This document shows, piece after piece, positions 2,876 through 34,996 of a stretch of DNA of 64,000 bases. The first letter of the stretch is position 1, and every line of letters begins with the position of its first letter. The position numbers were made by a program, and so were the translations under genes. This DNA comes from Armatimonadota bacterium (GTDB lineage: Bacteria > Armatimonadota > UBA5829 > DSUL01), in assembly GCA_039811685.1 (NCBI GenBank), contig JBDHZC010000004.1, positions 197,924 to 261,923 on the forward strand, given 5' to 3'. The notes under the pieces are model-generated. The model had not been told where the DNA came from, did no database searches, and worked only from the letters and a program-made list of their open reading frames with translations.

Positions 2876-3046
2876 CTTTGCTCGATATTGCCTGCCTGTG
2901 AAGGGTCGCTCTCTTCGCTCGTATCCAGGAAGCGAGGACGTTTCTCGAGGAAGGAACCGGCGCCCGTCATCGCAAAGACTTCTTGGGCTCTACTGTTCAG
3001 ATTTGGGTAGATTGCGCGGTGGCCTGGAAAGCCGTCTGGGAAGGCA

Positions 3047-3829
3047 ATGATAGTCCTGATAGTTGGAGATATCGTCGGTCGGCCTGGACGGCGGGCCTTG
3101 TCCGAAACTCTGCCGGGACTGGTTGAGGAGTTCTCGCCCGATTTTGTGATAGCCAACGGAGAAAACGCGGCCGGTGGGTCTGGCATTACGCGAGAGACAG
3201 CAGCGCCGTTGTTTTCCGCTGGCGTCCACGTACTGACGATGGGCAATCACGTGTGGAATCACCGTGAGGCAATCCCTTACATCGAAGAGGACACCAGGAT
3301 TGTCCGTCCGGCCAACTTCCCGTCAGGCTCGCCGGGGCGGGGAGCAAACGTGTTTGTAGCCCGGGACGGGGTGAAGGTCGCGGTTATCAATCTTCAGGGT
3401 CGCACTTTTATGCAGCCCATTGATGACCCGTTTCGAACCGGATCACAGCTCATTGAGACGCTCAGTCAGCAGGCGGATGTCATCATTGTGGATTTTCACG
3501 CTGAGGCTACCTCGGAGAAGATGGCCTTCGCGCATTATGTGGACGGCGGGGTTGCCTGTGTTTATGGAACACATACGCACGTGGCGACGGCTGACGAAGG
3601 GGTGCTGCCGCGGGGCACCGCATACATCACAGATATCGGCATGACCGGGCCTTCGCAGTCAATTATCGGAATGCGCCCGGATGAAATTATTGAGCGCTTC
3701 GTTACGGGGCTCCCAAAGCGTTATGAGGTGGCGGGAGGGCCCACGATGCTGAATGGAATAGTGCTGGACATTGATGAGTCCAAGGGTCTGGCCCGCTCGA
3801 TCCAGCGCGTACGCAGAGATGGATCTTAG
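3047..3829 (+). CDS. ymdB: YmdB-like metallophosphoesterase (TIGR00282 family 2',3'-cyclic-nucleotide phosphodiesterase)
   Basis: Collinear with B. subtilis YmdB along its whole length: MIVLIVGDIVGRPG, NGENAAGG, MGNHVWN, VRPANFP, INLQGRTFM, DFHAEATSEK, GTHTHV and AYITDIGMTG. It sits next to recA, as in Firmicutes. Confidence 0.85.
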   Translation: MIVLIVGDIVGRPGRRALSETLPGLVEEFSPDFVIANGENAAGGSGITRETAAPLFSAGVHVLTMGNHVWNHREAIPYIEEDTRIVRPANFPSGSPGRGANVFVARDGVKVAVINLQGRTFMQPIDDPFRTGSQLIETLSQQADVIIVDFHAEATSEKMAFAHYVDGGVACVYGTHTHVATADEGVLPRGTAYITDIGMTGPSQSIIGMRPDEIIERFVTGLPKRYEVAGGPTMLNGIVLDIDESKGLARSIQRVRRDGS

Positions 3830-24985: not shown

Positions 24986-26179
24986 TTACAGGATATCTAT
25001 GTCGTCAGTTGTCAATGACTGGCCAGTGGGTTTGACTTCCTCTCCTTTCTGCCTGACGCTGACACTGCGCCCGATCTCCGGTTCTAGCCATTCAAGCTGC
25101 GGCAGCGGAGTTCCACTTGTACTCATATACACCCAGTCCTGTGCGCGTGTAGTGCCAACAAAAAGGAGATCCTCTGGCGGTGTGGGCACGTTCTCAAAGC
25201 GGTGCCACGAGAGGTAAGGCATGAAAACACTGTTGAATGTGAGTCCTTTTGCCGAGTAGTAGGTCATCACTTTTGGAGCGTCTGATGTGTGGTCCGCCTC
25301 TTTATTAAACTCAGCTGGGATTCCCGCTTCCTGCAGACCCTTGGTGTTTCCGATCGCTAGACGGTTTGTGGGTACAAGAATTGCAACTCGCTCTCCCATG
25401 TTCACCCGCTCTCGAACAAGTCGGATCAGATTCTCCGACTCGTCGTGGTAGTCTGCTGCTTTGTACAGGACCACCGTTTCGCTCTGCTTGGTTGGGGTGT
25501 ATTTCTGTGCCAGGAACTTCCCTCGCTCAGCCTCGTCGAGTAGGAAACACGCTGCCGCATTATGAACGTGGGGGCAGCACCGGAAGGCATTGATAAGGGC
25601 TATATTCTCCTGCTTTAGCCCCAGGGCTTCCAGCACCTGCCGCTCGTCAGTACCCTCTTCGTAGAGTCGCTGCTTCTGATCCATCGCTACCATAAGATGT
25701 CGACTGATCAAGGTGAGCGTGCTCAAGGATTCGGCATCAATATCCTGTGCTTCGTCCACGAGAACAAACTCATACAGTGGGCGAGGTAATCGCCGGGCTA
25801 GTAGATGGCTTCTCACTGCAGCTCTCATCTCCGTGAACGCAGGACATCTATCATTTCTGTTCCATGGAAGCTGCCGGCCAATGTGGTCTCTGTAGTAATC
25901 GCAACACCAGCTGTCCCAGGTGCAAACACTATCTTCCGGGAGATCAATCAAAGTGGAGTCGGCCTGAATGTACTCTTTCAGCGCATTTGTATAGACAAAC
26001 AACTTGAAACTGTCGGGAGGAAGACCGTACTTTGTTCGCAAATAGTCCGCGCGATGCACAAGAACCATGGACTTGCCAGAACCAGGAGGCCCGGTGATAG
26101 CTCGGCTTCCGTCCATAGGTTGCTCCACGGCCCGCTGCTGTTCGGGTGTCAGGCGTGCAAAAGGCACGAGCCAAGCCAT
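24986..26179 (-). CDS. Compact SF1 UvrD-like helicase with Cys-rich inserts
   Basis: Walker A GPPGSGKS, motif II FVLVDEAQD, a UvrD_C-like YYSAKGLTFNSVFM and motif VI VGTTRAQDWV. Cys clusters CTWDSWCCDYY and FRCCPHVHNAAACF are present. Its ATG lies 3 nt after the stop of the Hsp70-like gene. Confidence 0.8.
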   Translation of the reverse strand: MAWLVPFARLTPEQQRAVEQPMDGSRAITGPPGSGKSMVLVHRADYLRTKYGLPPDSFKLFVYTNALKEYIQADSTLIDLPEDSVCTWDSWCCDYYRDHIGRQLPWNRNDRCPAFTEMRAAVRSHLLARRLPRPLYEFVLVDEAQDIDAESLSTLTLISRHLMVAMDQKQRLYEEGTDERQVLEALGLKQENIALINAFRCCPHVHNAAACFLLDEAERGKFLAQKYTPTKQSETVVLYKAADYHDESENLIRLVRERVNMGERVAILVPTNRLAIGNTKGLQEAGIPAEFNKEADHTSDAPKVMTYYSAKGLTFNSVFMPYLSWHRFENVPTPPEDLLFVGTTRAQDWVYMSTSGTPLPQLEWLEPEIGRSVSVRQKGEEVKPTGQSLTTDDIDIL

Positions 26180-26182
26180 TTG

Positions 26183-28576
26183 CTACTCCTTCCCGCTGGG
26201 ACCGATTGGGAGCACCCCTCCTCCGTCTTCTCCATTGCCACCCATCTTTCGGCGACGGCTTTCTTCGTCACAAGCCGAAAGGAGTTTGTTGTCTCCTACC
26301 ATACGCGCTGCAAGGCGCAGCCAGCCCACCTCCCAATCCTCCAGAGCTTCAACAGGTCCGAACGTCTCAAGAGCTTGCGACAGCGCTGCATCTCGCCCGT
26401 CCTTGTCGCCTTGCCCGCTTAGGATTTTAGCGTAGAGAACGAGGTAGCCTGCTTCCCGTTCGCGTTCCAAAGCTTGCTCAACCAACAAACGCGCTTTTTG
26501 AAGTTCACCGCGATGCTCGAGAGAATCGGCGAGGTTAAATAGGGGCCCACCCCAGTTTGTGCCAGCTTGGGCCGCGGCCGTGTAGAAAGTCTCCTCCCGT
26601 TTATGATCGCCTAACCGCCCTGCGTAGATTCCGGCCAAGTTCAGCAGGCCCGGTTGCGGAGTACCGGCGATTGTATTTGCTGTCTTTAGATGACTGAGAG
26701 CCCGCTCGAATTGCCTTACCTCTGCACAGAGTACCGCGAGCTCCCGGAACGCGGCCACGCGGGCCCATCCCGCGTAATCTCCTGTTCTAATCTTTTCCTC
26801 GATCTCAATAATCTTACCGCGAGTCTCGTTTGGGTCGACCACGTGGGTCAGAGGCCGTTCAACTGTGAGGCCGAATGGACTCCCCGGCGCTCCAGCGCGA
26901 AATGCCCGTATTGCCAGCATCTGGTTGTCGTCCATATGATACTGAACTACTAGGGATTCCCCCTTGGTCACCGGTCCCGAGATCCTCCAAATCGCAGATT
27001 GCAGCCGACGCTGGGCACGTCCGTCGTCAGCCGTCAGATCGATCCGAAGATCCAATGATTCAGCTGTCTCCGGTATGCTAAGGGTGTCTATCTGGCCCCA
27101 GCCGTCCGCAGGATATGGCACAGCTTCGCCCTTGGGAATCAGGGTGAGAATCCCATCTCTTGTGCGGAGGCCGATGCTATCGCTCAGAACTGGCTGAATA
27201 AGACCCGCGCCAAAAAGGCGCAGTGCCAATGAGTGCAAGGCTGCCCCCTCGGCGACGGCAGTCTGTATCTGTCCGTGGTCGTCAAAAGTCCGCACTTGTG
27301 CTTGAGGCCCCAGGTGTTGTTCCAGCGCCTCCACAACCTGTGGAATCAGGCTGCTGCCGCCGACGAGTAGCACTGTATCCACGTCGGTTGGTCGCAAATT
27401 AGAGCGGGCTAGCGCATCATCCAGCGGCGCAAAGATGGAGCATGTGACGCCGTAATCACCCTCAATAGGCACTGTGATGTCTTCGTCGAGAAACGGAGCG
27501 AGGATTGCCTCGAACTGTTCTAGCGTGAGAGAGGGGCTGGGTAGCAGAAGCTGCCTGCCATTTAACACACACTGATGGCTTGATGGAAGTACTGCAGTGT
27601 GGCGATCGGTATCTGTCGGATCGAAACGCTTGAAATCCTTGAGCCTTCGTACGCTGTTGCACAGCGATATCTTCAGTGACTCAGCCACGCCGAGAAGGGC
27701 TGGCTCCAGGAAGTACTTTCGCTCCTTGAACTCTATTTCGCTGGACGATATCCCATTTGCTTCGAGCAATGCAGGAATCAGGACTTCATGTACAATGGAG
27801 TTATCAATGTCACCACCACCAAGCCGGTGGTAACGAGACACCGCTAGCGGAGCCACGCTTATCGGACGCTCCGGTGACTGGCGCGTGAGCTGAAGTACCG
27901 CTATGTCGCAGGTGCCGCCGCCGAAGTCGAACACCACAAGGCGCGACGAGCCGCAGCGCTGCAGGGGATCCTCGTCTGGTAGGCCGTTGAGAAAAGTCAG
28001 AAACGCTCCAATCGGCTCATCAAGCAGATCCCCCGGCATTATCTGTATGCCTGCTTCGCGTGCCGCCTCCACAGTGTCCGAGCGCTGGGGCACCTGGAAC
28101 GAGGCAGGTACCGTAACGACGGCCCTCTGAATGGCCGTGTCGTCGCGCAGCGTTTCCACCAGACACCCTAAAACTTTCGCTGCGATGTCGCGTGCGCATC
28201 GAAAGCCTTCCGGCGCCTGGTTGTAAGTGCGCGTAATGCCCATTTCATTCTTGCATTCGTAGAACAGGTCCCGGTAAGGTAAGAGGTTATACTCGGTGCT
28301 CTCAGCTCTTAGCCGCTTGGCGCCTTCCCCGACAAGTACCCGGTTTGGCAGAACAGCCACCACCGAAGGGAACAGCGGACTCGTAGTATTGCCGGCATTT
28401 AGTGTCTCTTGGGGAATATCGAGGCAACGCACCTGGACGCTCTCTGGCTGGTTTGGATCCCAGCTTGCCTCGGCGACAGTTGAATTCGTTGTACCGAGAT
28501 CAATGCCAATTCCCGTTACGGCTTCATCGGGTACGTCGTTCTGTCGTGCTGCCATAAGTTCACTGAAGTAGCTCAT
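26183..28576 (-). CDS. Hsp70-like ATPase (nucleotide-binding domain plus β-sandwich) with a C-terminal TPR array replacing the helical lid
   Basis: Hsp70/actin-fold motifs [20 protein letters not shown] and VLLVGGSSLIPQV. A β-rich segment is collinear with DnaK SBDβ. The ~250 C-terminal aa are TPR-like repeats. An AAAGGA SD precedes the ATG. This protein is distinct from the housekeeping dnaK at 19078..20913. Confidence 0.8.
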   Translation of the reverse strand: MSYFSELMAARQNDVPDEAVTGIGIDLGTTNSTVAEASWDPNQPESVQVRCLDIPQETLNAGNTTSPLFPSVVAVLPNRVLVGEGAKRLRAESTEYNLLPYRDLFYECKNEMGITRTYNQAPEGFRCARDIAAKVLGCLVETLRDDTAIQRAVVTVPASFQVPQRSDTVEAAREAGIQIMPGDLLDEPIGAFLTFLNGLPDEDPLQRCGSSRLVVFDFGGGTCDIAVLQLTRQSPERPISVAPLAVSRYHRLGGGDIDNSIVHEVLIPALLEANGISSSEIEFKERKYFLEPALLGVAESLKISLCNSVRRLKDFKRFDPTDTDRHTAVLPSSHQCVLNGRQLLLPSPSLTLEQFEAILAPFLDEDITVPIEGDYGVTCSIFAPLDDALARSNLRPTDVDTVLLVGGSSLIPQVVEALEQHLGPQAQVRTFDDHGQIQTAVAEGAALHSLALRLFGAGLIQPVLSDSIGLRTRDGILTLIPKGEAVPYPADGWGQIDTLSIPETAESLDLRIDLTADDGRAQRRLQSAIWRISGPVTKGESLVVQYHMDDNQMLAIRAFRAGAPGSPFGLTVERPLTHVVDPNETRGKIIEIEEKIRTGDYAGWARVAAFRELAVLCAEVRQFERALSHLKTANTIAGTPQPGLLNLAGIYAGRLGDHKREETFYTAAAQAGTNWGGPLFNLADSLEHRGELQKARLLVEQALEREREAGYLVLYAKILSGQGDKDGRDAALSQALETFGPVEALEDWEVGWLRLAARMVGDNKLLSACDEESRRRKMGGNGEDGGGVLPIGPSGKE

Positions 28577-28616: not shown

Positions 28617-28688
28617 CCCTCACACGTCGTACACCTTCAGCACCTCATCACCATAGTGGTTGATGACTTTGACGGCGATTTTGCCGGA
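28617..28688. repeat. Direct repeat copy 2 (72 bp): the native 3' end of the mod gene
   Basis: Identical to 24894-24965 except for 3 transitions; it encodes the last ~22 codons and stop of mod. Confidence 0.85.
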
Positions 28689-31415
28689 TTCGGGACGGGC
28701 GAAGGGGCGGCTTGTGGTGAGGTAGAGATCGGCCCACGCAGCTTCGTCCACCTCCGCTCGGAGCGCTCTCTTCAGTTTGTCGTATGGCTCGCCTGCGCCT
28801 GTGAAATAGGCGTGGCGCACGAAGAAGCTCTCTTCGTTGTAGCTCGTGTCTATGAACCAGGCGGCGATCTCGTCGGTTGCGTCTGACCGGAGCTCGCCAG
28901 TCGTCGGATCGTAGATGTCCACACCGCGGATAGTCACCTGCACCTGGTCGCCAGACAAGTGGCTCACCACGATATCCGGCTCTCCGAAGATCATGAAGAG
29001 GTTTCCGGCGCCGGTTTTCTTCAGGAGTTCGTCGCCCATCGTGAGGTCGGCGTTGATCCTTGTGGGAAGGACGACGAGGTTTCCGTAGCGCTTCGTCTCC
29101 TCGCCGACGTGTGGATCGAAGGCGAGGCCGGCGATGAGGAGCGTGTCGAATCCAGCGCCCTTCACAGCCTCCTTGGCGGCTTCACGTACGAGGTCCGGCG
29201 TGACGGTCCCAAACTCCGGGCCCACACAGACGGCCACCCGCTTTGTGGTCTCCCCTTCCGTATATTCACCGGCCGCGTGCAACCACTCGCCAGGGTAGAT
29301 GTCCAGACGGTCGAACTTCAGCCGCTCACCCTTGACGGTGTTCTGGACACCGGCCTTCTTCATGTTTTCGATGATGGTGACGCCAAACTCGCCCGCTCCG
29401 CGGATAGAGAACTGGTAGCCGTCCTCCGTCGGCTTTTCAAGCTCTTTTTTGCTCTGCACGGATATCTGGCGGTGAGGAGACAGGCTTTCGACGGTGAAAG
29501 GGCCTGTAACGCGGATGCGCTTGTTGTCTTCGTAGGGCTTGTCGTAGAGAAACTCGGCGTCGGCCCGGCGGGCGATGCTGGCGTCAATCTCCTGCTGGCG
29601 CTCCCGGCGCAGGTCCCACCATTTCTTCAGCAGGGCCTCCGCCTCACTGCCCACTGGCTTCTTCCCGCTGTCCCCTGTCCGCGGCACTTCCCACTCTTCC
29701 CAGCTCTTTCCGAAGGCCTGGTTGATTTTTGCTCGCAAGTCCTCCAGCGCGGGCTGCCACTTTTCGTGGATGGTGTCTATCTCTTCGTTGTTGGCGATGG
29801 ATTTCAGCGTGATGTGCGGCACGCGCTGGTAAACAAAGCCGCGCTTGATGTCGTGGCCAGTGGTCAGTGATTGGTGGTCAGTGGGCAGTGAGGCGTGGTC
29901 GGCTTCCAGCCCTCTGATTTCGGACTCTTTCTTGCGCCCCTCGGGGGAATCGGCCAGCAGGTAGTAAGGAAACTTCGCGCACATAAGGCGTGTGCGGGCA
30001 AGGGTCAGCGCTACGCGAGAGGTGTCGCAGGTGATCCAGCGGCGTCCCCACTGCTCCGCTACGTACGCCGTCGTGCCGCTGCCGCAGGTGGGGTCCAGGA
30101 CGAGGTCGCCGGGGTCGGTGGTCATGAGGAGGCAACGCTCGATCACACGGCGCGCGGTCTGGACCACATACTGCTTGTCTTCGCTCCAGCCTGCTATGAC
30201 GGTGTCAGTCCAGAGAGCGTTCAGTGGGACAGCACCGAAATCGTCGAGGAACCTAATGTACCCTGCCGAACTGCGCCGCGCGGAAACGCGACCGGCAGTG
30301 ATCAGACGCGCCATACCTTCAGGGTTCGACTTGTAGCTGTTCGCATATGTGCGCCCGTTCACTACCACCTCGAATACAGGGTTGCCTTGTGTCGCCAAAT
30401 TGTCGTGGCGGAACAGCTTGCTGCCGGCCGGCAGCTGTTGTATCGCAGCTAAATCATCTGTCGGGAGTGTGCGGGTACTTCCGTCAGGCAGCATTGCATA
30501 GCGGTATTCTGCTGTGCCGCCACCGCCCAACTCCTTGTTTAGGTAAAGCTGATGGTACTTCACAGCCTCTCGGTTCTTCGTGTACCACAGCAGATAGTCT
30601 GCAACCCCGGTCAGCAAGCGCGACTGGAAACCGCTGGTTTTCGCAAAGACTATCTCGCCGCAGGAATTCTCACTCCCAAACACCTCGTCCAGAAGGCACC
30701 GCACCAGGTGCACGTTCTCATCACCAATCTGCACGAACACGCTGCCGGATTCAGTGAGAAGCTCGCGGGCGACGACCAGCCTGTCGCGGAGATACGCGAG
30801 GTACGAGTGGATGCCGTACTCCCACGTGTCCCGGAACGCCCGGACCTGCTCCGGCTGGCGCGTCAGGTCAGAGGCTGCCCCGTCCTTCACATCGCGCTTG
30901 CGCGTGGACACCTGCCAGTTGCTGCCGAACTTGATGCCGTAGGGCGGGTCTATGTAGATCATCTGGACCTGCCCCTTCAGCCCCTCCTTCTCCGCCAGCG
31001 AGTTCATCACCAGCAGGCTGTCGCCCAGGATCATCCTGTTGGACCAGTGGTTGGCGTGCTCGTAGAACTGAATCTGTTCCTCGAACGGCAGGCCGTTGAA
31101 GGCATCGCCGAACAGATCGAGCTGGGCGGGGGGCGCTGGAGACGCTTGGGCGCTCGCCTGCCGCCGGAAGTCCTCGATAATCGCCTGCGGGTGAATCTTC
31201 TCCTGAATGTAGATGGGGACAGACAGCACGGACAGGTCCTCAGCGTCCTGCTGGTCCTTGCCCTTCCACACAAGCTGGGGGTCCAGCGACGGATCGCGCG
31301 GATACAGCACCGCCTTCGGCTTCTGCTCGTCCTCGCTTACAAACCCTCGAAGCTCCTCCGTCGGTATGTTCGGCCGGGTGTCGGAATGGGTGATGTTCTC
31401 AATCTTCTTGTTCAT
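28620..31415 (-). CDS. mod: Type III-like restriction-modification DNA methyltransferase (Mod; N6-adenine/N4-cytosine class) with a long C-terminal extension
   Basis: Catalytic IYIDPPYG motif, AdoMet-binding region (LDPTCGSGTTAYVA) and a ~350 aa C-terminal extension. Start set at ATG 31415 (MNKKIENI), which has an AGAGGA SD. The ORF track opens it at GTG 31442. Confidence 0.85.
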   Translation of the reverse strand: MNKKIENITHSDTRPNIPTEELRGFVSEDEQKPKAVLYPRDPSLDPQLVWKGKDQQDAEDLSVLSVPIYIQEKIHPQAIIEDFRRQASAQASPAPPAQLDLFGDAFNGLPFEEQIQFYEHANHWSNRMILGDSLLVMNSLAEKEGLKGQVQMIYIDPPYGIKFGSNWQVSTRKRDVKDGAASDLTRQPEQVRAFRDTWEYGIHSYLAYLRDRLVVARELLTESGSVFVQIGDENVHLVRCLLDEVFGSENSCGEIVFAKTSGFQSRLLTGVADYLLWYTKNREAVKYHQLYLNKELGGGGTAEYRYAMLPDGSTRTLPTDDLAAIQQLPAGSKLFRHDNLATQGNPVFEVVVNGRTYANSYKSNPEGMARLITAGRVSARRSSAGYIRFLDDFGAVPLNALWTDTVIAGWSEDKQYVVQTARRVIERCLLMTTDPGDLVLDPTCGSGTTAYVAEQWGRRWITCDTSRVALTLARTRLMCAKFPYYLLADSPEGRKKESEIRGLEADHASLPTDHQSLTTGHDIKRGFVYQRVPHITLKSIANNEEIDTIHEKWQPALEDLRAKINQAFGKSWEEWEVPRTGDSGKKPVGSEAEALLKKWWDLRRERQQEIDASIARRADAEFLYDKPYEDNKRIRVTGPFTVESLSPHRQISVQSKKELEKPTEDGYQFSIRGAGEFGVTIIENMKKAGVQNTVKGERLKFDRLDIYPGEWLHAAGEYTEGETTKRVAVCVGPEFGTVTPDLVREAAKEAVKGAGFDTLLIAGLAFDPHVGEETKRYGNLVVLPTRINADLTMGDELLKKTGAGNLFMIFGEPDIVVSHLSGDQVQVTIRGVDIYDPTTGELRSDATDEIAAWFIDTSYNEESFFVRHAYFTGAGEPYDKLKRALRAEVDEAAWADLYLTTSRPFARPESGKIAVKVINHYGDEVLKVYDV

Positions 31416-32004
31416 GGGTCCTCTGGGCCTCATGGGACGCACGCTGAATGTTACGTTGCCGCAGCCGCGCCCGCGTCATGCGCTCGCGCAGGCCACCTTC
31501 CTCAAGGAAGGACTTCTCCAGGCTTCTCAGCAGGCGGTCCAGCAGATAGTTCGTCTGGTGAATCAGGCAGATGATGGTGTTTGCCGCGACCTCCGGAGGC
31601 GCGTGGGCCACACGAGTCTCATAAGTCTTATAGGACACATGCTCCCCGTACGCCAGCTTCCGGATTACCTGCGCCTGCGGGTGGTTTTTGTCCCACGCCG
31701 GCAGTTTGCGCGTGCGCAGAAAGTCGCGGTAGTCCTCCAGAAGCTCCTCCAGACTGGCGCGCGCGACGTTCATCAGCTTGATTTCCGTCTCTTTGGAGGT
31801 CGCCGAAGCCATGCTCCCTTCCACGATGTTTTGCTTGCCAGACCTTGCCGCCTGAATCATCTGATCGTGTGTCCGGCTGCGCCTGTCAACAAAGCGCTGA
31901 CAAAAGGCGGCCGTCGCGTCATAGACGATCCTGGCTTTCTGGTAGGCCGCAAGGTCCTGGTAGCCTCCGTGCTTCGGGATGAAGCCTGCTTCAGACATCG
32001 GCAT
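31399..32004 (-). CDS. Four-helix-bundle protein (TIGR02436; 23S rRNA intervening-sequence protein family)
   Basis: Characteristic block …QKARIVYDATAAFCQRF…QMIQAARSGKQNIVEG…EIKLMNVARASLEELLEDY…. It overlaps res at its 5' end and mod at its 3' end. Confidence 0.75.
   Translation of the reverse strand: MPMSEAGFIPKHGGYQDLAAYQKARIVYDATAAFCQRFVDRRSRTHDQMIQAARSGKQNIVEGSMASATSKETEIKLMNVARASLEELLEDYRDFLRTRKLPAWDKNHPQAQVIRKLAYGEHVSYKTYETRVAHAPPEVAANTIICLIHQTNYLLDRLLRSLEKSFLEEGGLRERMTRARLRQRNIQRASHEAQRTHEQED
31413..31441. repeat. Res/Mod junction repeat, copy A (29 bp)
   Basis: CATGGGTCCTCTGGGCCTCATGGGACGCA matches 32002-32030 at 26/29. In one frame it encodes the four-helix-bundle C-terminal tail ASHEAQRTHEQED*; in another it encodes MRPMRPRGPM, which leads into mod. 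Confidence 0.8.
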
Positions 32005-34996
32005 GGGTCTTGTGGGTCTCATGGGACGCATGATGGAGCCAGGCCCGTATCGTCTGCTTCGCATCCCACGGATCGCTTATCTCCAGGAACGCCCAGCGGC
32101 CGTAGCCGCCGTGGTTGTTGATGGCTGGAACCCACAGTGTCCGGGCCGTAGCGGTCTTCGCCGTCTTGTCCTTTCTCTTTTCACCGGAGCACTCGAGGAT
32201 CAGGTTCAGCGTCTGTCCGTCCCCCTGCCGGACGTGGCAGATGAAGTCCGGGATGTAGCTGCGCTCCTCCCCGGAAAGCGAATAGGGAATTGTGAAGCCG
32301 AGGTTGTGGTTCTTGACGTAGTGTGCGACTTCGACCATCTCCTCCAGCGCCTGCGCAAGTTTTTGCTCCCACGACTCCGTGTCGGCCACGACGTGCGAGA
32401 TGTGGCACTTTTCCGGATCGGTCGCATACACCGGGCGCGTTGTGTCGAAGTCCACGTAGCGCGTGGAGCCGACGGTGTCATACGGTCGCAGGATCGGTAT
32501 CAGCCGCTTTTCGCCCTCCTGGGACGCCACAATCGCCCTGTAGATACGGTCGGCGGCGTCGTGCTGAAACTGGGTCAGGAGCATAAGCTGCGGGAAGCAG
32601 TTGTCCTTGCAGGTGAGGCATTCCTCAAGCCAGCGGCGGGCGATTTCGACCAGATCCGGGAAGTACCAGTGTTTGATATTACCCTCTTCGTCCCGGAAGT
32701 ACGCCTCGAGCGTCCGTTTGGCCAGGATAAAGGCCACCTCTTGCATTCGGTGTTTGCGAAGGTCATCCAGGTTGTGAATAACGGTTTCACCGACAAAGGC
32801 GCCCATCTTCGTGCGAGTGGTAACATCTTCGGTCGTGAGGGCGAAGCGTGAATCCTCTGTGAAATCTGCGGTCAGCCGCTCCGCGGGAAACTCATAGCGG
32901 TATCCCGAAACACGCGGGAAGGTGATCTCGCATGCAATCCGGTCTTCCAGCGCCCGGACGCGCGTGGGGATCGGTCCGGGTTTCGGGTCGGTCATCGAAC
33001 CGGCCGCCGGGATAAAGGAAAACGGAACGCCGTACACCTCTGCGTATTCTGCGGGGAACAGCCCGTTGTCATCCGGCTGATGGCTCATTCGGCGCAGCCC
33101 GCGTCCAACCACCTGCTCACAGAGGAGCTGTGTCCCAAATGCGCGTACCCCGAGGATATGGGTCACGGTGTTCGCATCCCAGCCTTCGGTGAGCATTGAG
33201 ACTGAGACAACGCAGCGCACATGCTCCCCCAGCTTTCCCCGTTTACCGACCGTGTTCATAACCTCGCGCAGCAGGTCCTCATCGGTCAACTTGCTGGCGT
33301 CGCGTCCAGGGAAGCGCGCTACATACTCCGCCTTGAACTCCTCGATCTCGGCGGCGGCTATCTTCTTGAACTCATCGCTCATCGCCTCGCCCGATTCGAG
33401 CTGCTCGCTGTCAATCAGAATCGTGTTCGGACGGTGCAGCCACTGGCCGTGCTCGACATTGCTGAAAAGAGGGAGCGCCCCGGGCACATTGACCGTCTGG
33501 CCATCTTCGAGCGGTTTCTCCCATCCGGCGATGAAGTCGAAGACGAGCTTCGAAACGTTCGTGTTGTTGCAGACGACAATGAACACCGGCGGAACGCCGG
33601 AATTACCGGCGTCATCTGTGCTCTGCTCCCACTGCCGGTAGTATTTCTCGTAGTTGCCGTAAAGGCTGCGAATGGCGCCTTCCAGCTCTGCTGGCAGCTT
33701 TGGTTCAACGGGAGCAGCCTCCGTGCCGCGGCCTTTTTTCGGGAGATCGTCCCGGATGCGCGTCCACAGATCGCGGTACGTCGGCTGGTCGCCCGTCATG
33801 GAATCGTCCGCTACGGGCACGCGCGGGACTTTCACGATGCCGGACTCGATGGCGTCCACGAGAGAGAAGTCCGAGACAACCCACGGGAACAACATCCCTT
33901 CCGGATAGCCTGACCCGCGAAGGAAGAACGGTGTTGCGGACAGATCGTAGATGGCCTTTACACCTATCTTGTTCTTGACCGCCTCAATGCCTGATATCCA
34001 GACGCGGGCTGCTTCGTCGCGCTTCTGCGCCTCTTTGCGCTCATCGCCGGTCAGCTTTTCTTCGGGGGCTTCCGGCTTGCGCCTGTAGCAGTGGTGCGCT
34101 TCGTCGTTGATGACGATGATGTTCTTCTTCGAGCCAAATTGCCGGCACACTCTGCGCACCATTTCATCGGGCGTCTCCGTGAACGTCGAGCTTGACGAAC
34201 CTCCACGCGACTGCAGCACCTCTTTGGTGAGCTTCCCGGCCGAGATCTTTTCCCGGTGGAGGAATGCGTGGTAGTTCGTGATGAGGATATTGGCCTGACC
34301 GAGATCTTCGCGCATGTCGGCGGGCACAACATCCATAGTCCGGTAGTAGTTGTCCCCGTCGTTTGGGAGCAACACGCGCAGGCGGTCTTTGATGGTGATT
34401 CCCGGCGTGATAATCAGAAAAGTATCGGAAAAGCGCGTGTCCTGCCGGTTTGCCAGCTTGTTGAGGGTGTGCCAGGCGATAAGCATGGCCATAACGACCG
34501 TCTTGCCAGTTCCCGTGGCCATCTTGAGCGCAAGGCGGTCCAAACCGGGATTGCTGGCGTTGTTGAAGTCTTTCAGCTTTGTGGCCAGGGACGCATCGCC
34601 CATTTTGCCCGCGCACTCGGTTAGGTAGATCAGAGTCTCCAGCGCTTCGATCTGGCAGAAGTAGAGCCGCCGCTCGCGATCTTCAGCGGTCCAGTGCGCA
34701 AGAAGCTGCCGGGTAACGGGGGTAACGCCTGGTCTGCCCTCCCGCCGCCACAATCCCACGCGCTCGCGCACCAGATTGATGAAGGTATTCTCTTCGATTC
34801 GCTCCTGCGTCCATTCCGTAGCCAGCACAAGCTGTTTGCTTTTCTTCTTGGCTTTTGGGACGGGAATGAAGTAGGAGCTGCGCCTGCGGCTTTCGACGAT
34901 GTCGCTCGTGATGCCATCTTCATCGAAGCGGAAGTGGCGGCGGGGCTCCTCAAAAGGAGAGTTGATAACGGGGTTTTCGATTACGACCTGAGCCAT
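31991..34996 (-). CDS. res: Type III restriction endonuclease Res subunit (SF2 helicase-nuclease)
   Basis: Classical Res N-terminus MAQVVIENPVINSPFEEPRRHF. Helicase motifs I (MATGTGKT) and II (VINDEAHH) and motif VI (QVVGRGLRR) are present across ~1000 aa. Confidence 0.9.
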   Translation of the reverse strand: MAQVVIENPVINSPFEEPRRHFRFDEDGITSDIVESRRRSSYFIPVPKAKKKSKQLVLATEWTQERIEENTFINLVRERVGLWRREGRPGVTPVTRQLLAHWTAEDRERRLYFCQIEALETLIYLTECAGKMGDASLATKLKDFNNASNPGLDRLALKMATGTGKTVVMAMLIAWHTLNKLANRQDTRFSDTFLIITPGITIKDRLRVLLPNDGDNYYRTMDVVPADMREDLGQANILITNYHAFLHREKISAGKLTKEVLQSRGGSSSSTFTETPDEMVRRVCRQFGSKKNIIVINDEAHHCYRRKPEAPEEKLTGDERKEAQKRDEAARVWISGIEAVKNKIGVKAIYDLSATPFFLRGSGYPEGMLFPWVVSDFSLVDAIESGIVKVPRVPVADDSMTGDQPTYRDLWTRIRDDLPKKGRGTEAAPVEPKLPAELEGAIRSLYGNYEKYYRQWEQSTDDAGNSGVPPVFIVVCNNTNVSKLVFDFIAGWEKPLEDGQTVNVPGALPLFSNVEHGQWLHRPNTILIDSEQLESGEAMSDEFKKIAAAEIEEFKAEYVARFPGRDASKLTDEDLLREVMNTVGKRGKLGEHVRCVVSVSMLTEGWDANTVTHILGVRAFGTQLLCEQVVGRGLRRMSHQPDDNGLFPAEYAEVYGVPFSFIPAAGSMTDPKPGPIPTRVRALEDRIACEITFPRVSGYRYEFPAERLTADFTEDSRFALTTEDVTTRTKMGAFVGETVIHNLDDLRKHRMQEVAFILAKRTLEAYFRDEEGNIKHWYFPDLVEIARRWLEECLTCKDNCFPQLMLLTQFQHDAADRIYRAIVASQEGEKRLIPILRPYDTVGSTRYVDFDTTRPVYATDPEKCHISHVVADTESWEQKLAQALEEMVEVAHYVKNHNLGFTIPYSLSGEERSYIPDFICHVRQGDGQTLNLILECSGEKRKDKTAKTATARTLWVPAINNHGGYGRWAFLEISDPWDAKQTIRAWLHHASHETHKTHADV
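32002..32030. repeat. Res/Mod junction repeat, copy B (29 bp)
   Basis: CATGGGTCTTGTGGGTCTCATGGGACGCA encodes the res C-terminal tail ASHETHKTHADV* in one frame and MRPMRPTRPM, leading into the four-helix-bundle protein, in another. Confidence 0.8.

Follow-up and report, generated by a model that had tools for sequence, protein, structure and literature searches.

A four-helix-bundle suffix gene bounded by 9-nt repeats at the res–mod junction of a Type III-like restriction–modification operon in an Armatimonadota bacterium

The res–mod locus and its repeats

The restriction–modification (R-M) operon considered here belongs to an Armatimonadota bacterium (GenBank assembly GCA_039811685.1) and lies in a stretch of 64,000 nucleotides (nt) of contig JBDHZC010000004.1 (positions 197,924 to 261,923 of the forward strand), hereafter called the window, within which all positions below are numbered. 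Between its restriction gene (res) and its methyltransferase gene (mod) sits a gene for a four-helix-bundle (4HB) protein with an additional suffix domain, and a 29-nt sequence recurs, nearly unchanged, at both ends of that gene. Genes of the PF05635/TIGR02436 family are among the commonest unexplained passengers of R-M loci and of rRNA intervening sequences; to our knowledge, their mobility has been suspected since the 1990s and no cis element has been defined for them. A sequence-only reading of the window had taken the repeat for a res–mod junction that was duplicated when the 4HB gene was inserted. Here, we describe the locus and its relatives and argue that the two copies are probably the terminal arrays of a 9-nt tandem repeat belonging to a widespread 4HB-suffix gene cassette, lodged in the res–mod cargo slot of a BPTD_3080-type operon.

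All three genes are encoded on the minus strand. The res gene (34996..31991) specifies a BPTD_3080-family Type III-like restriction endonuclease of 1001 amino acids (aa), which scores 1226 bits against NF046055 (the BPTD_3080 family; cut-off 800). The profile stops at residue 984 of 1001, and the final ~12 codons, ending in ...ASHETHKTHADV*, are read from the upstream repeat and the first bases of the 4HB gene. The mod gene (28620..31415, within the open reading frame [ORF] 31442..28620 that begins MRPMRPRGPMNKKIEN) encodes a full-length Type III N6/N4 methyltransferase of 931 aa from the ATG at 31415, with a PADLOC MTase_III score of 1015 bits and a PF01555 match. With Res above the NF046055 cut-off and paired with Mod, the two genes classify as a Type III-like R-M system of the BPTD_3080 family.

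The 4HB-suffix gene occupies 31399..32004 (ORF 32064..31399, with MRPMRPTRPMPMSE... in its upstream part and ...ASHEAQRTHEQED* as its tail) and encodes 201 aa. Its earlier assignment to TIGR02436 holds for the N-terminal bundle (29.8 bits, cut-off 24), which is followed by a TIGR04258 suffix (84.6 bits, cut-off 40); the score against Pfam PF05635 (30.7 bits) is slightly under the gathering score of 33.8. An AF2 monomer model is an all-helical bundle (pLDDT 86.9); among solved folds in the PDB it comes closest to 2rld, from the S23 ribosomal protein family, at a probability of 0.99 and a target-normalised TM of 0.61 but an E-value of 0.22. A sequence search of the PDB with the protein found nothing, and PADLOC holds no model for it.

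In the source record, 4HB and mod each start at the last ATG of the respective repeat copy, and by these starts the 4HB gene overlaps both neighbours, as had been read from the sequence, by 14 nt (res) and 17 nt (mod). Five genes lie within 5 kb (uvrA, res, 4HB, mod and an Hsp70-like gene). A Logan assembly of a sequencing run is 100% identical to the window over 31007-34562; because this separate assembly agrees over ~3.5 kb, the res–4HB–mod arrangement is no quirk of a single assembly. By GC content, the 4HB cassette does not stand out as foreign against res and mod: at third codon positions (GC3) all three genes have the same value (0.74–0.78), and the next gene has 0.59. Since its GC3 equals that of res and mod, the cassette either is not a recent arrival or came with the R-M block.

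The repeat, CATGGGTC(C/T)T(C/G)TGGG(C/T)CTCATGGGACGCA, is matched at two places in the window and nowhere else, 31413-31441 and 32002-32030 of the plus strand, with 26 of 29 positions identical. The pair can be extended to 34 nt (31413-31446 and 32002-32035; 85% identity), and its spacing is 589 nt. The degenerate 29-mer was matched in none of 100 dinucleotide-preserving shuffles, 0 matches being expected by chance, and the flanks of the window junction score 20 against a maximum of 13 in a null of mismatched junction pairs from 30 loci. The pair flanking the 4HB ORF is therefore as the sequence-only reading had it, and the fallback offered there, a coincidental or low-complexity likeness, does not survive these figures.

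Each copy resolves into three units of a 9-nt tandem repeat (CATGCGTCC-CATGAGRCC-CASARGACC-CATG), and Tandem Repeats Finder (TRF) reports period-9 arrays, CCCATGAGA and CCCATGAGG, at both of them (the window being entered as loci L087 and L088 of the set compared). The 5′ nonamer array, copy A (32002..32035, with its 29-nt core at 32002-32030, minus strand), lies upstream and reads CAT-CATGCGTCC-CATGAGACC-CACAAGACC-CATG on the gene strand; its last ATG (32004-32002) is the annotated 4HB start. The 3′ nonamer array, copy B (31413..31446, core 31413-31441, minus strand), lies downstream and reads CAGCGTGCGTCC-CATGAGGCC-CAGAGGACC-CATG; it encodes the 4HB tail, has a GAGGA Shine-Dalgarno-like site and ends in the ATG (31415-31413) at which mod is annotated to start. 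The three differences between the copies all alter an encoded tail residue (T/A, H/Q and K/R). Folded singly, the copies give z-scores of −1.2 and +1.2, that is, no significant RNA structure.

A further patch (31611..31641, minus strand) lies within the 4HB gene, where it codes for HVSYKTYETR of the helix 3–4 loop. Its gene-strand sequence, CATGTGTCC-TATAAGACT-TATGAGACT-CGTG, agrees with copy A at 22 of 31 positions, counted by eye; judged by this likeness, it is a paralogue of the flanking units. TRF also places period-9 arrays at the internal-patch position in many 4HB loci.

The closest relatives of the cassette

The search for 4HB homologues gave at least 8000 candidates, and its best 120 matches were considered. 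The family is very large and unusually uniform: the best 120 of at least 8000 matches are 66–80% identical and mostly 184–195 aa long, and homologues in the thousands carry the annotation four helix bundle suffix protein. Among the matches listed, the closest relative (P0002; 76% identical in protein and ~80% in nucleotide sequence over the ORF) stands in an unrelated Type I operon, hsdM-hsdS-4HB-hsdR (locus L081). About 15 units precede it (CATGAGGCC CATAGGACC CATGAGGCC CATAGGACC CATGGGACC ...) and about ten follow it (... CATGAGACC CATGCGTCC GATGAGCCC AATGAGACT ...). When the two cassettes are aligned as DNA (mean column identity 80%), their arrays fall at the same positions at both ORF ends: copy A aligns with the end of the L081 5′ array, and copy B has the position, relative to the 4HB ORF, of the L081 3′ array.

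A scan of all 168 other loci (~2.4 Mb) for the 29-mer found the best match to copy B, TAGGACCCATGAGGCCCATAGGACCCATG, in the upstream (5′) array of L081, at 25 of 29 positions, compared with 26 of 29 between the two window copies and a typical best match per locus of 16–19 of 29. By our own estimate, the chance expectation of a 25/29 match over this length is roughly 1e-5. Further matches of 21–23/29 lie inside other 4HB genes, in the segment homologous to the internal patch, which encodes the helix 3–4 loop (HxSYxTYxTY). Because the same units flank the 4HB gene in an unrelated Type I operon and recur across the loci of the family, we regard the repeat as cassette-borne; by these alignments, the arrays are shown to be inherited with the gene and not with the host junction.

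Array length varies among relatives. An orthologous Type I locus (hsdR 87% identical) has kept the cassette, with an upstream array of ~50 nt versus ~150 nt and a 4HB protein of 196 aa versus 211 aa, a five-unit difference. Some homologues have SHxSHx... expansions in the loop; in P0047, P0080, P0094 and P0101 (alignment columns 137–165) there are in-frame helix 3–4 loop expansions, e.g. SHQSHESHRSHQSHRSPESPESPESH, which look like the nonamer repeat expanded inside the ORF. From the orthologous unit counts and the loop expansions it follows that arrays change length in 9-nt steps, as slippage-prone tandem repeats do. At the level of these comparisons, arrays at both ends of the 4HB ORF, a third patch in the loop-coding region and length change in 9-nt steps are shown for the cassette. 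An empty hsdS–hsdR site near L081 was not found, the closest hsdR (87%) also having the cassette and the next being at ~71%.

Arrays across the 4HB-suffix family

A metagenome scan supplied 80 further 4HB-suffix loci (318 kb). Under a strict definition of an array (at least three RRGAC cores spaced exactly 9 nt apart, on either strand), 36 arrays were detected in the 318 kb, as against 0–1 at each other spacing of 5–8 and 10–14 nt. The window's mod contributes one of these hits through a coding motif; of the remaining 35 arrays, 34 map no further than 300 nt from an end of a 4HB gene (18 upstream of it, 15 downstream and 1 internal). A loose detector found arrays upstream in 32 of the 80 loci, downstream in 19, on both flanks in 14 and in the loop-coding region in 18, with 0–1 at other spacings. 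The consensus of 131 units is nnA(A/T)(A/G)GGAC, and the window units are CATGAGACC-like. Arrays occur in either orientation, and seven loci have convergent pairs (RRGAC... then ...GTCYY) that would form hairpins. Rfam has no family for the array-bearing loci.

The two flanks of a locus tend to resemble one another. Shared 8-mers were too noisy, and k = 10–11 was used for the comparison: a 10-mer common to the upstream and the downstream flank was present in 17 of 69 loci, where 4.2 are expected from permuted pairs, and none of 2000 permutations reached the observed count. The survey of other 4HB genes called for by the sequence-only reading thus did turn up related flanking repeats, though not as duplications of host junctions.

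In 845 kb of res loci and the 64-kb window, the strict detector hit only a conserved coding motif in mod, counted as false positives. The motif, KDxxDxxxD (AGGACNNNCAGGACNNNNAGGAC), is N-terminal in Mod and mimics a three-unit RRGAC array; it lies at 31236-31258 in the window and recurs ~170–250 nt into mod in L024, L030, L036, L038, L040, L051, L065 and L073.

The res–mod junction as a cargo slot

Relatives of res were collected by a scan with one genome per species, which gave 80 loci of 50–72% identity from many phyla. Both res and mod could be placed in 57 of the 80 (L001–L080), all 57 with the res-then-mod order conserved, and these form the comparable set. In 28 of these BPTD_3080-type loci res abuts or overlaps mod; in the other 29, 0.5–4.3 kb separate the two. 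The cargo of the filled junctions is of a kind typical of defence islands and comprises DUF5131 (five proteins), AAA_15/AAA_21 ATPases (four), GmrSD (three) and Fic (two) proteins, as well as DUF3800, Abi_2, AIPR, HepT/MNT and HEPN. Nearly all of the cargo genes share the strand of res, and overlaps with res or mod are frequent among them. The closest res relative in a large protein database (78%; locus L169) likewise has other cargo, a 176-aa protein and an AAA ATPase (L169 3415-5788), and no such flanking repeat. Because res abuts mod in 28 of 57 loci and different cargo fills the other 29, the 4HB gene at the res/mod junction is supported as an insertion; on this distribution, the junction is a variable cargo slot, of which the 4HB gene is one occupant.

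A tblastn search with the window 4HB protein found no 4HB relative in the 80 res loci, so a direct comparison of filled and empty sites within the res/mod family is impossible. The 28 empty junctions contain nothing that resembles the 29-mer and no array, and no flanking repeat comparable to that of the window occurs at any of the 29 filled junctions (best ungapped score, 11). The degenerate 28-mer had no exact match in a scan of metagenome contigs. What the sequence-only reading expected of loci lacking the 4HB gene was hence borne out for res directly abutting mod and not for a single copy of the junction sequence (0/28).

In the empty loci, res tails are variable after a conserved ...IR motif, and mod begins MAKKK or MPKKK. 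One res subfamily (P0135, P0140, P0144, P0156 and others; L029, L040, L049 and L073) has a conserved 17-residue tail, GFLKQxQxExxKEVAHG*, the last codons of which hold a Shine-Dalgarno site (AAGGAAG) and the mod ATG; this is a conserved overlapping junction, unlike that of the window. Homology of the window res tail to this GFLKQAQAESTKEVAHG tail was considered and found not convincing, with 5 of 17 residues shared and dissimilar DNA.

Genomic contexts of the family

Proteins 70–80% identical to the window 4HB protein are encoded in Type I, II and III R-M operons, in type I-C CRISPR-Cas operons and in housekeeping contexts. This distribution supports the gene family as evolutionarily mobile, a suspicion that the sequence-only reading had also voiced. 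Among the nearest large neighbours in type I-C CRISPR-Cas loci are Csd1 (8 loci) and Cas7 (5) upstream and Cas4 (6) and Cas1 (7) downstream; those in R-M loci are N6_Mtase (6) and Eco57I (2), plus ResIII, HsdS and HsdR. Other neighbours include SelB (3) and assorted housekeeping genes. Most neighbours of 4HB-suffix genes are co-directional and closely spaced. The Pfam families of the neighbours and the Cas4-like coding sequence next downstream make it appear that 4HB-suffix genes lie within operons of type I-C CRISPR-Cas systems. In L108, L110–L112, L121, L126, L128, L146, L147 and L168, the 4HB gene is just upstream of cas4 (at ~3001-3560 in the long loci), and ATGAC/AAGAC nonamer units extend into the first cas4 codons (e.g. 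MTNMTYKYSEDDL). Among 2.9 million viral contigs there was one relative only, and a phage origin is therefore unlikely.

Reading frames and expression signals

The unit CATGAGACC reads H-E-T in frame 1, ATG-AGA-CCC (M-R-P) in frame 2, and contains TGA in frame 3. In the window, res is translated across the 5′ array in frame 1, as ASHETHKTH, with its stop codon 11 nt past the array, within the 4HB coding sequence. The 4HB gene starts at the array ATG or at the next ATG, 6 nt downstream; the latter fits the family's usual M(S/T)xGFIP start, and by this resemblance the second ATG (MSEAGF...) is probably the family-typical start. The 4HB frame in turn crosses the 3′ array in frame 1 (ASHEAQRTH) and stops 14 nt past it, within mod; the start of mod is the final ATG of this array, with GAGGA three bases before it. 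The peptides that the sequence-only reading had assigned to both copies, tails and starts alike, are correct. Most family members end in ...RARLEERKKxRx, and the window 4HB gene is without that stop; its C-terminal 13–15 residues (ASHEAQRTHEQED) go past the usual family end and thus represent an extension read from the array. The overlaps of 14 and 17 nt arise because res and 4HB read through the arrays and 4HB and mod start at array ATGs. No sigma-70-like promoter and no minus-strand terminator was found at 31200-32300. The Type I locus of P0002 follows the same pattern, the hsdS stop being the TGA of the first unit and the 4HB tail (HGAHVPHETHASDEPNE...) the translated array.

Such overlaps would give translational coupling, and if they do, the insertion would not be polar on mod. 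Recombination or slippage between the direct arrays could cleanly delete the cassette, and recombination of the two would leave a functional res–mod overlap. A supply of stop and start codons was considered as the general function of the arrays and rejected: they occur in both orientations and also as non-coding hairpins, so that the start/stop reading seen in the window cannot be general. Because arrays elsewhere are often non-coding, inverted or hairpin-forming, a primary role at the nucleic-acid level is more likely. The leading candidates are putative repeated binding sites for a presumably oligomeric 4HB protein, or else sites of recombination or RNA processing like those that terminate the rRNA intervening sequences encoding S23p.

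Origin of the repeats

Three other accounts of the repeat pair were weighed. According to the sequence-only reading, insertion of the 4HB gene duplicated a res/mod junction of ~29–34 bp, so that both copies would be host sequence. The direct repeats do stand exactly at both borders of the inserted gene, each rebuilding a workable tail-plus-start junction, and recombining them would restore an intact res–mod overlap; moreover, in length the res tail equals the GFLKQAQAESTKEVAHG tail conserved in the res subfamily mentioned above, and it has 5 of 17 residues in common with that tail. The host side of the argument, however, is not supported. Host sequence present once at empty sites was not found: the 29-mer has no counterpart at the 28 empty junctions, nor do the 29 filled ones show a flanking repeat to compare with it, these nearest relatives being only 50–78% identical; the metagenome collection held no exact match to the degenerate 28-mer, and the closest res relative, with its different cargo, lacks such a repeat. 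The repeat also does not differ between insertion sites, given that its units recur both around the closest 4HB relative, in a Type I operon (25/29), and within 4HB genes themselves, and units common to unrelated targets count against a target origin, since target-derived sequence should differ between unrelated targets. In addition, 29–34 bp is far above the usual length of a transposon duplication. We therefore keep the insertion and consider the duplication of a host junction quite improbable.

It is also unlikely that the target was itself an array, into which a circular or linear 4HB cassette with one array of its own integrated by homologous recombination (Campbell-type), splitting or duplicating the array at the junction. 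A few arrays do lie away from any 4HB gene (L150, L155 and L140), and unit type is shared more between the two flanking arrays of a locus than between arrays from different loci; but 34 of the 35 arrays of the strict set lie no more than 300 nt from a 4HB gene, the 28 empty junctions, the 845 kb of res loci and the rest of the window have none save the mod coding motif, and flanking arrays are often mutually inverted, unlike a simple single-crossover product. Chance or low-complexity similarity, or convergent selection on His/Thr-rich protein tails, could be invoked because the sequence is internally repetitive (CCCATG... three times) and both copies encode similar H-x-T peptides. The shuffles and the mismatched-junction null speak against chance; all three differences between the copies change the encoded residue; and protein-level selection cannot explain arrays that are, at many related loci, non-coding and in either orientation. 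This account we regard as barely credible.

The view that the copies are terminal arrays of a 4HB-suffix cassette has its own difficulties. Arrays are detectable in only ~30–45% of 4HB-suffix loci and, being seen in under half of them, are not obligatory; they are found in either orientation; and the cassette has no linked recombinase. A few solo arrays stand 1–2.6 kb from the 4HB gene, on the far side of neighbouring genes. The window arrays themselves are short and degenerate, copy A having two perfect RRGAC cores and copy B a single one, and fail both the strict and the loose detector, so that their assignment rests on likeness to the L081 arrays and on CAT periodicity. Finally, searches for relatives of the window res–mod locus found none closer than 78%, and hence no true empty site for the lineage. 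These points all weigh against the cassette interpretation, which we nevertheless favour.

The solo arrays lie at ~292-367 in L150, at 3397-3494 and 3744-3766 in L155 and at 208-230 in L140, and some are convergent hairpins. Their existence suggests that arrays are able to enclose neighbouring genes as well as 4HB, or to survive on their own.

Comparison with known systems

The S23p (PF05635) genes in 23S rRNA intervening sequences (IVSs), as in Coxiella and Leptospira, are considered selfish inserts that spread horizontally and have inverted repeats at their ends. The S23p start of Coxiella is directly preceded by two to three tandem heptamers (GACAGAT), the number of which differs from strain to strain (PMC4990558). 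The window gene belongs to the same superfamily (TIGR02436/PF05635; best fold match 2rld, at E = 0.22) and is likewise a small ORF with repeated termini, and the Coxiella heptamers, which share the GAC core of window-type arrays, are the nearest precedent. The differences are nonetheless several. The heptamers have a 7-nt unit and the 4HB-suffix arrays a 9-nt unit; the host site in the window is the junction of a protein-coding operon, with res and mod as neighbours, and not helix 25 or 45 of rRNA; the window protein carries the extra TIGR04258 suffix domain; and the window arrays are translated and, as direct repeats, are not able to pair into the RNase III stem by which an IVS is defined, so that the locus does not qualify as a 23S IVS.

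Avd proteins are basic and oligomeric and bind nucleic acid together with a reverse transcriptase. They represent a homologous four-helix-bundle family, that of the diversity-generating retroelements (PMC10053308). Unlike these elements, the window has no reverse transcriptase gene within 5 kb of its 4HB gene (template and variable repeats were not looked for) and is not assigned to them; nor is there a reverse transcriptase family among the listed neighbour families of 4HB-suffix genes (R-M, CRISPR-Cas I-C and housekeeping).

Accessory genes embedded in R-M operons, e.g. prrC or the rlo genes in Type I loci, are a further known theme. The window resembles them in having a variable cargo slot between conserved R-M genes (filled in 29 of 57 res–mod junctions), and departs from them in that, among the loci examined, only the window cargo is a detectable 4HB relative and only it has matching flanks. 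Like transposons with target-site duplications and integron attC cassettes, the family combines a short ORF bounded by repeats with many genomic contexts. Unlike in transposons, the window repeat is not target-derived and belongs to tandem arrays whose length and orientation vary; neither a transposase nor an integrase gene was seen beside the window cassette, and the window has no attC-like imperfect palindrome, the copies being without significant fold.

Neighbouring features of the window

Directly downstream of mod (24986-28576, minus strand) lie genes for an Hsp70-like protein (797 aa, with a long C-terminal extension and no PADLOC match; GC3 0.59 against ~0.75 for the R-M block) and for a UvrD/GajB-like helicase (397 aa; PADLOC NERD+UvrD, 3e-19). 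The two may be a further defence pair. Inside mod, a 47-nt inverted repeat (29640-29686 and 29849-29895; 72% complementary, with internal GGTCAGTG repeats) falls in a low-complexity stretch encoding ...ADHASLPTDHQSLTTGHD....

Significance

The locus is a variant of a known theme, that of repeat-bounded S23p/4HB selfish genes, of which the arrays and the architecture are newly described: full-text literature searches found no description of the nonamer arrays or of the cassette architecture. Tentatively, and as a possibility that we rate below even, 4HB-suffix genes and their AWRGGAC nonamer arrays might be an undescribed class of operon-invading cassette. The arrays would then be its cis-acting ends, bound by the 4HB protein or used in recombination or RNA processing, and would supply stop, Shine-Dalgarno and start signals; such cassettes would settle in co-transcribed operons, preferentially those of defence (R-M Types I–III and CRISPR-Cas I-C), without breaking them, possibly regulating or parasitising them.

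The locus also illustrates that a repeat flanking an insert is not necessarily a target-site duplication. For the family, the arrays provide a searchable signature (RRGAC cores at a strict 9-nt spacing, at both gene ends and in the loop-coding region), which connects cassettes across unrelated operons and, at the window locus, accounts for the odd C-terminal tails and the overlapping starts. It makes testable whether the 4HB protein binds the arrays, whether the arrays mediate gain and loss of the cassette and whether the cassette modulates the expression of the R-M or CRISPR-Cas operons in which it resides.

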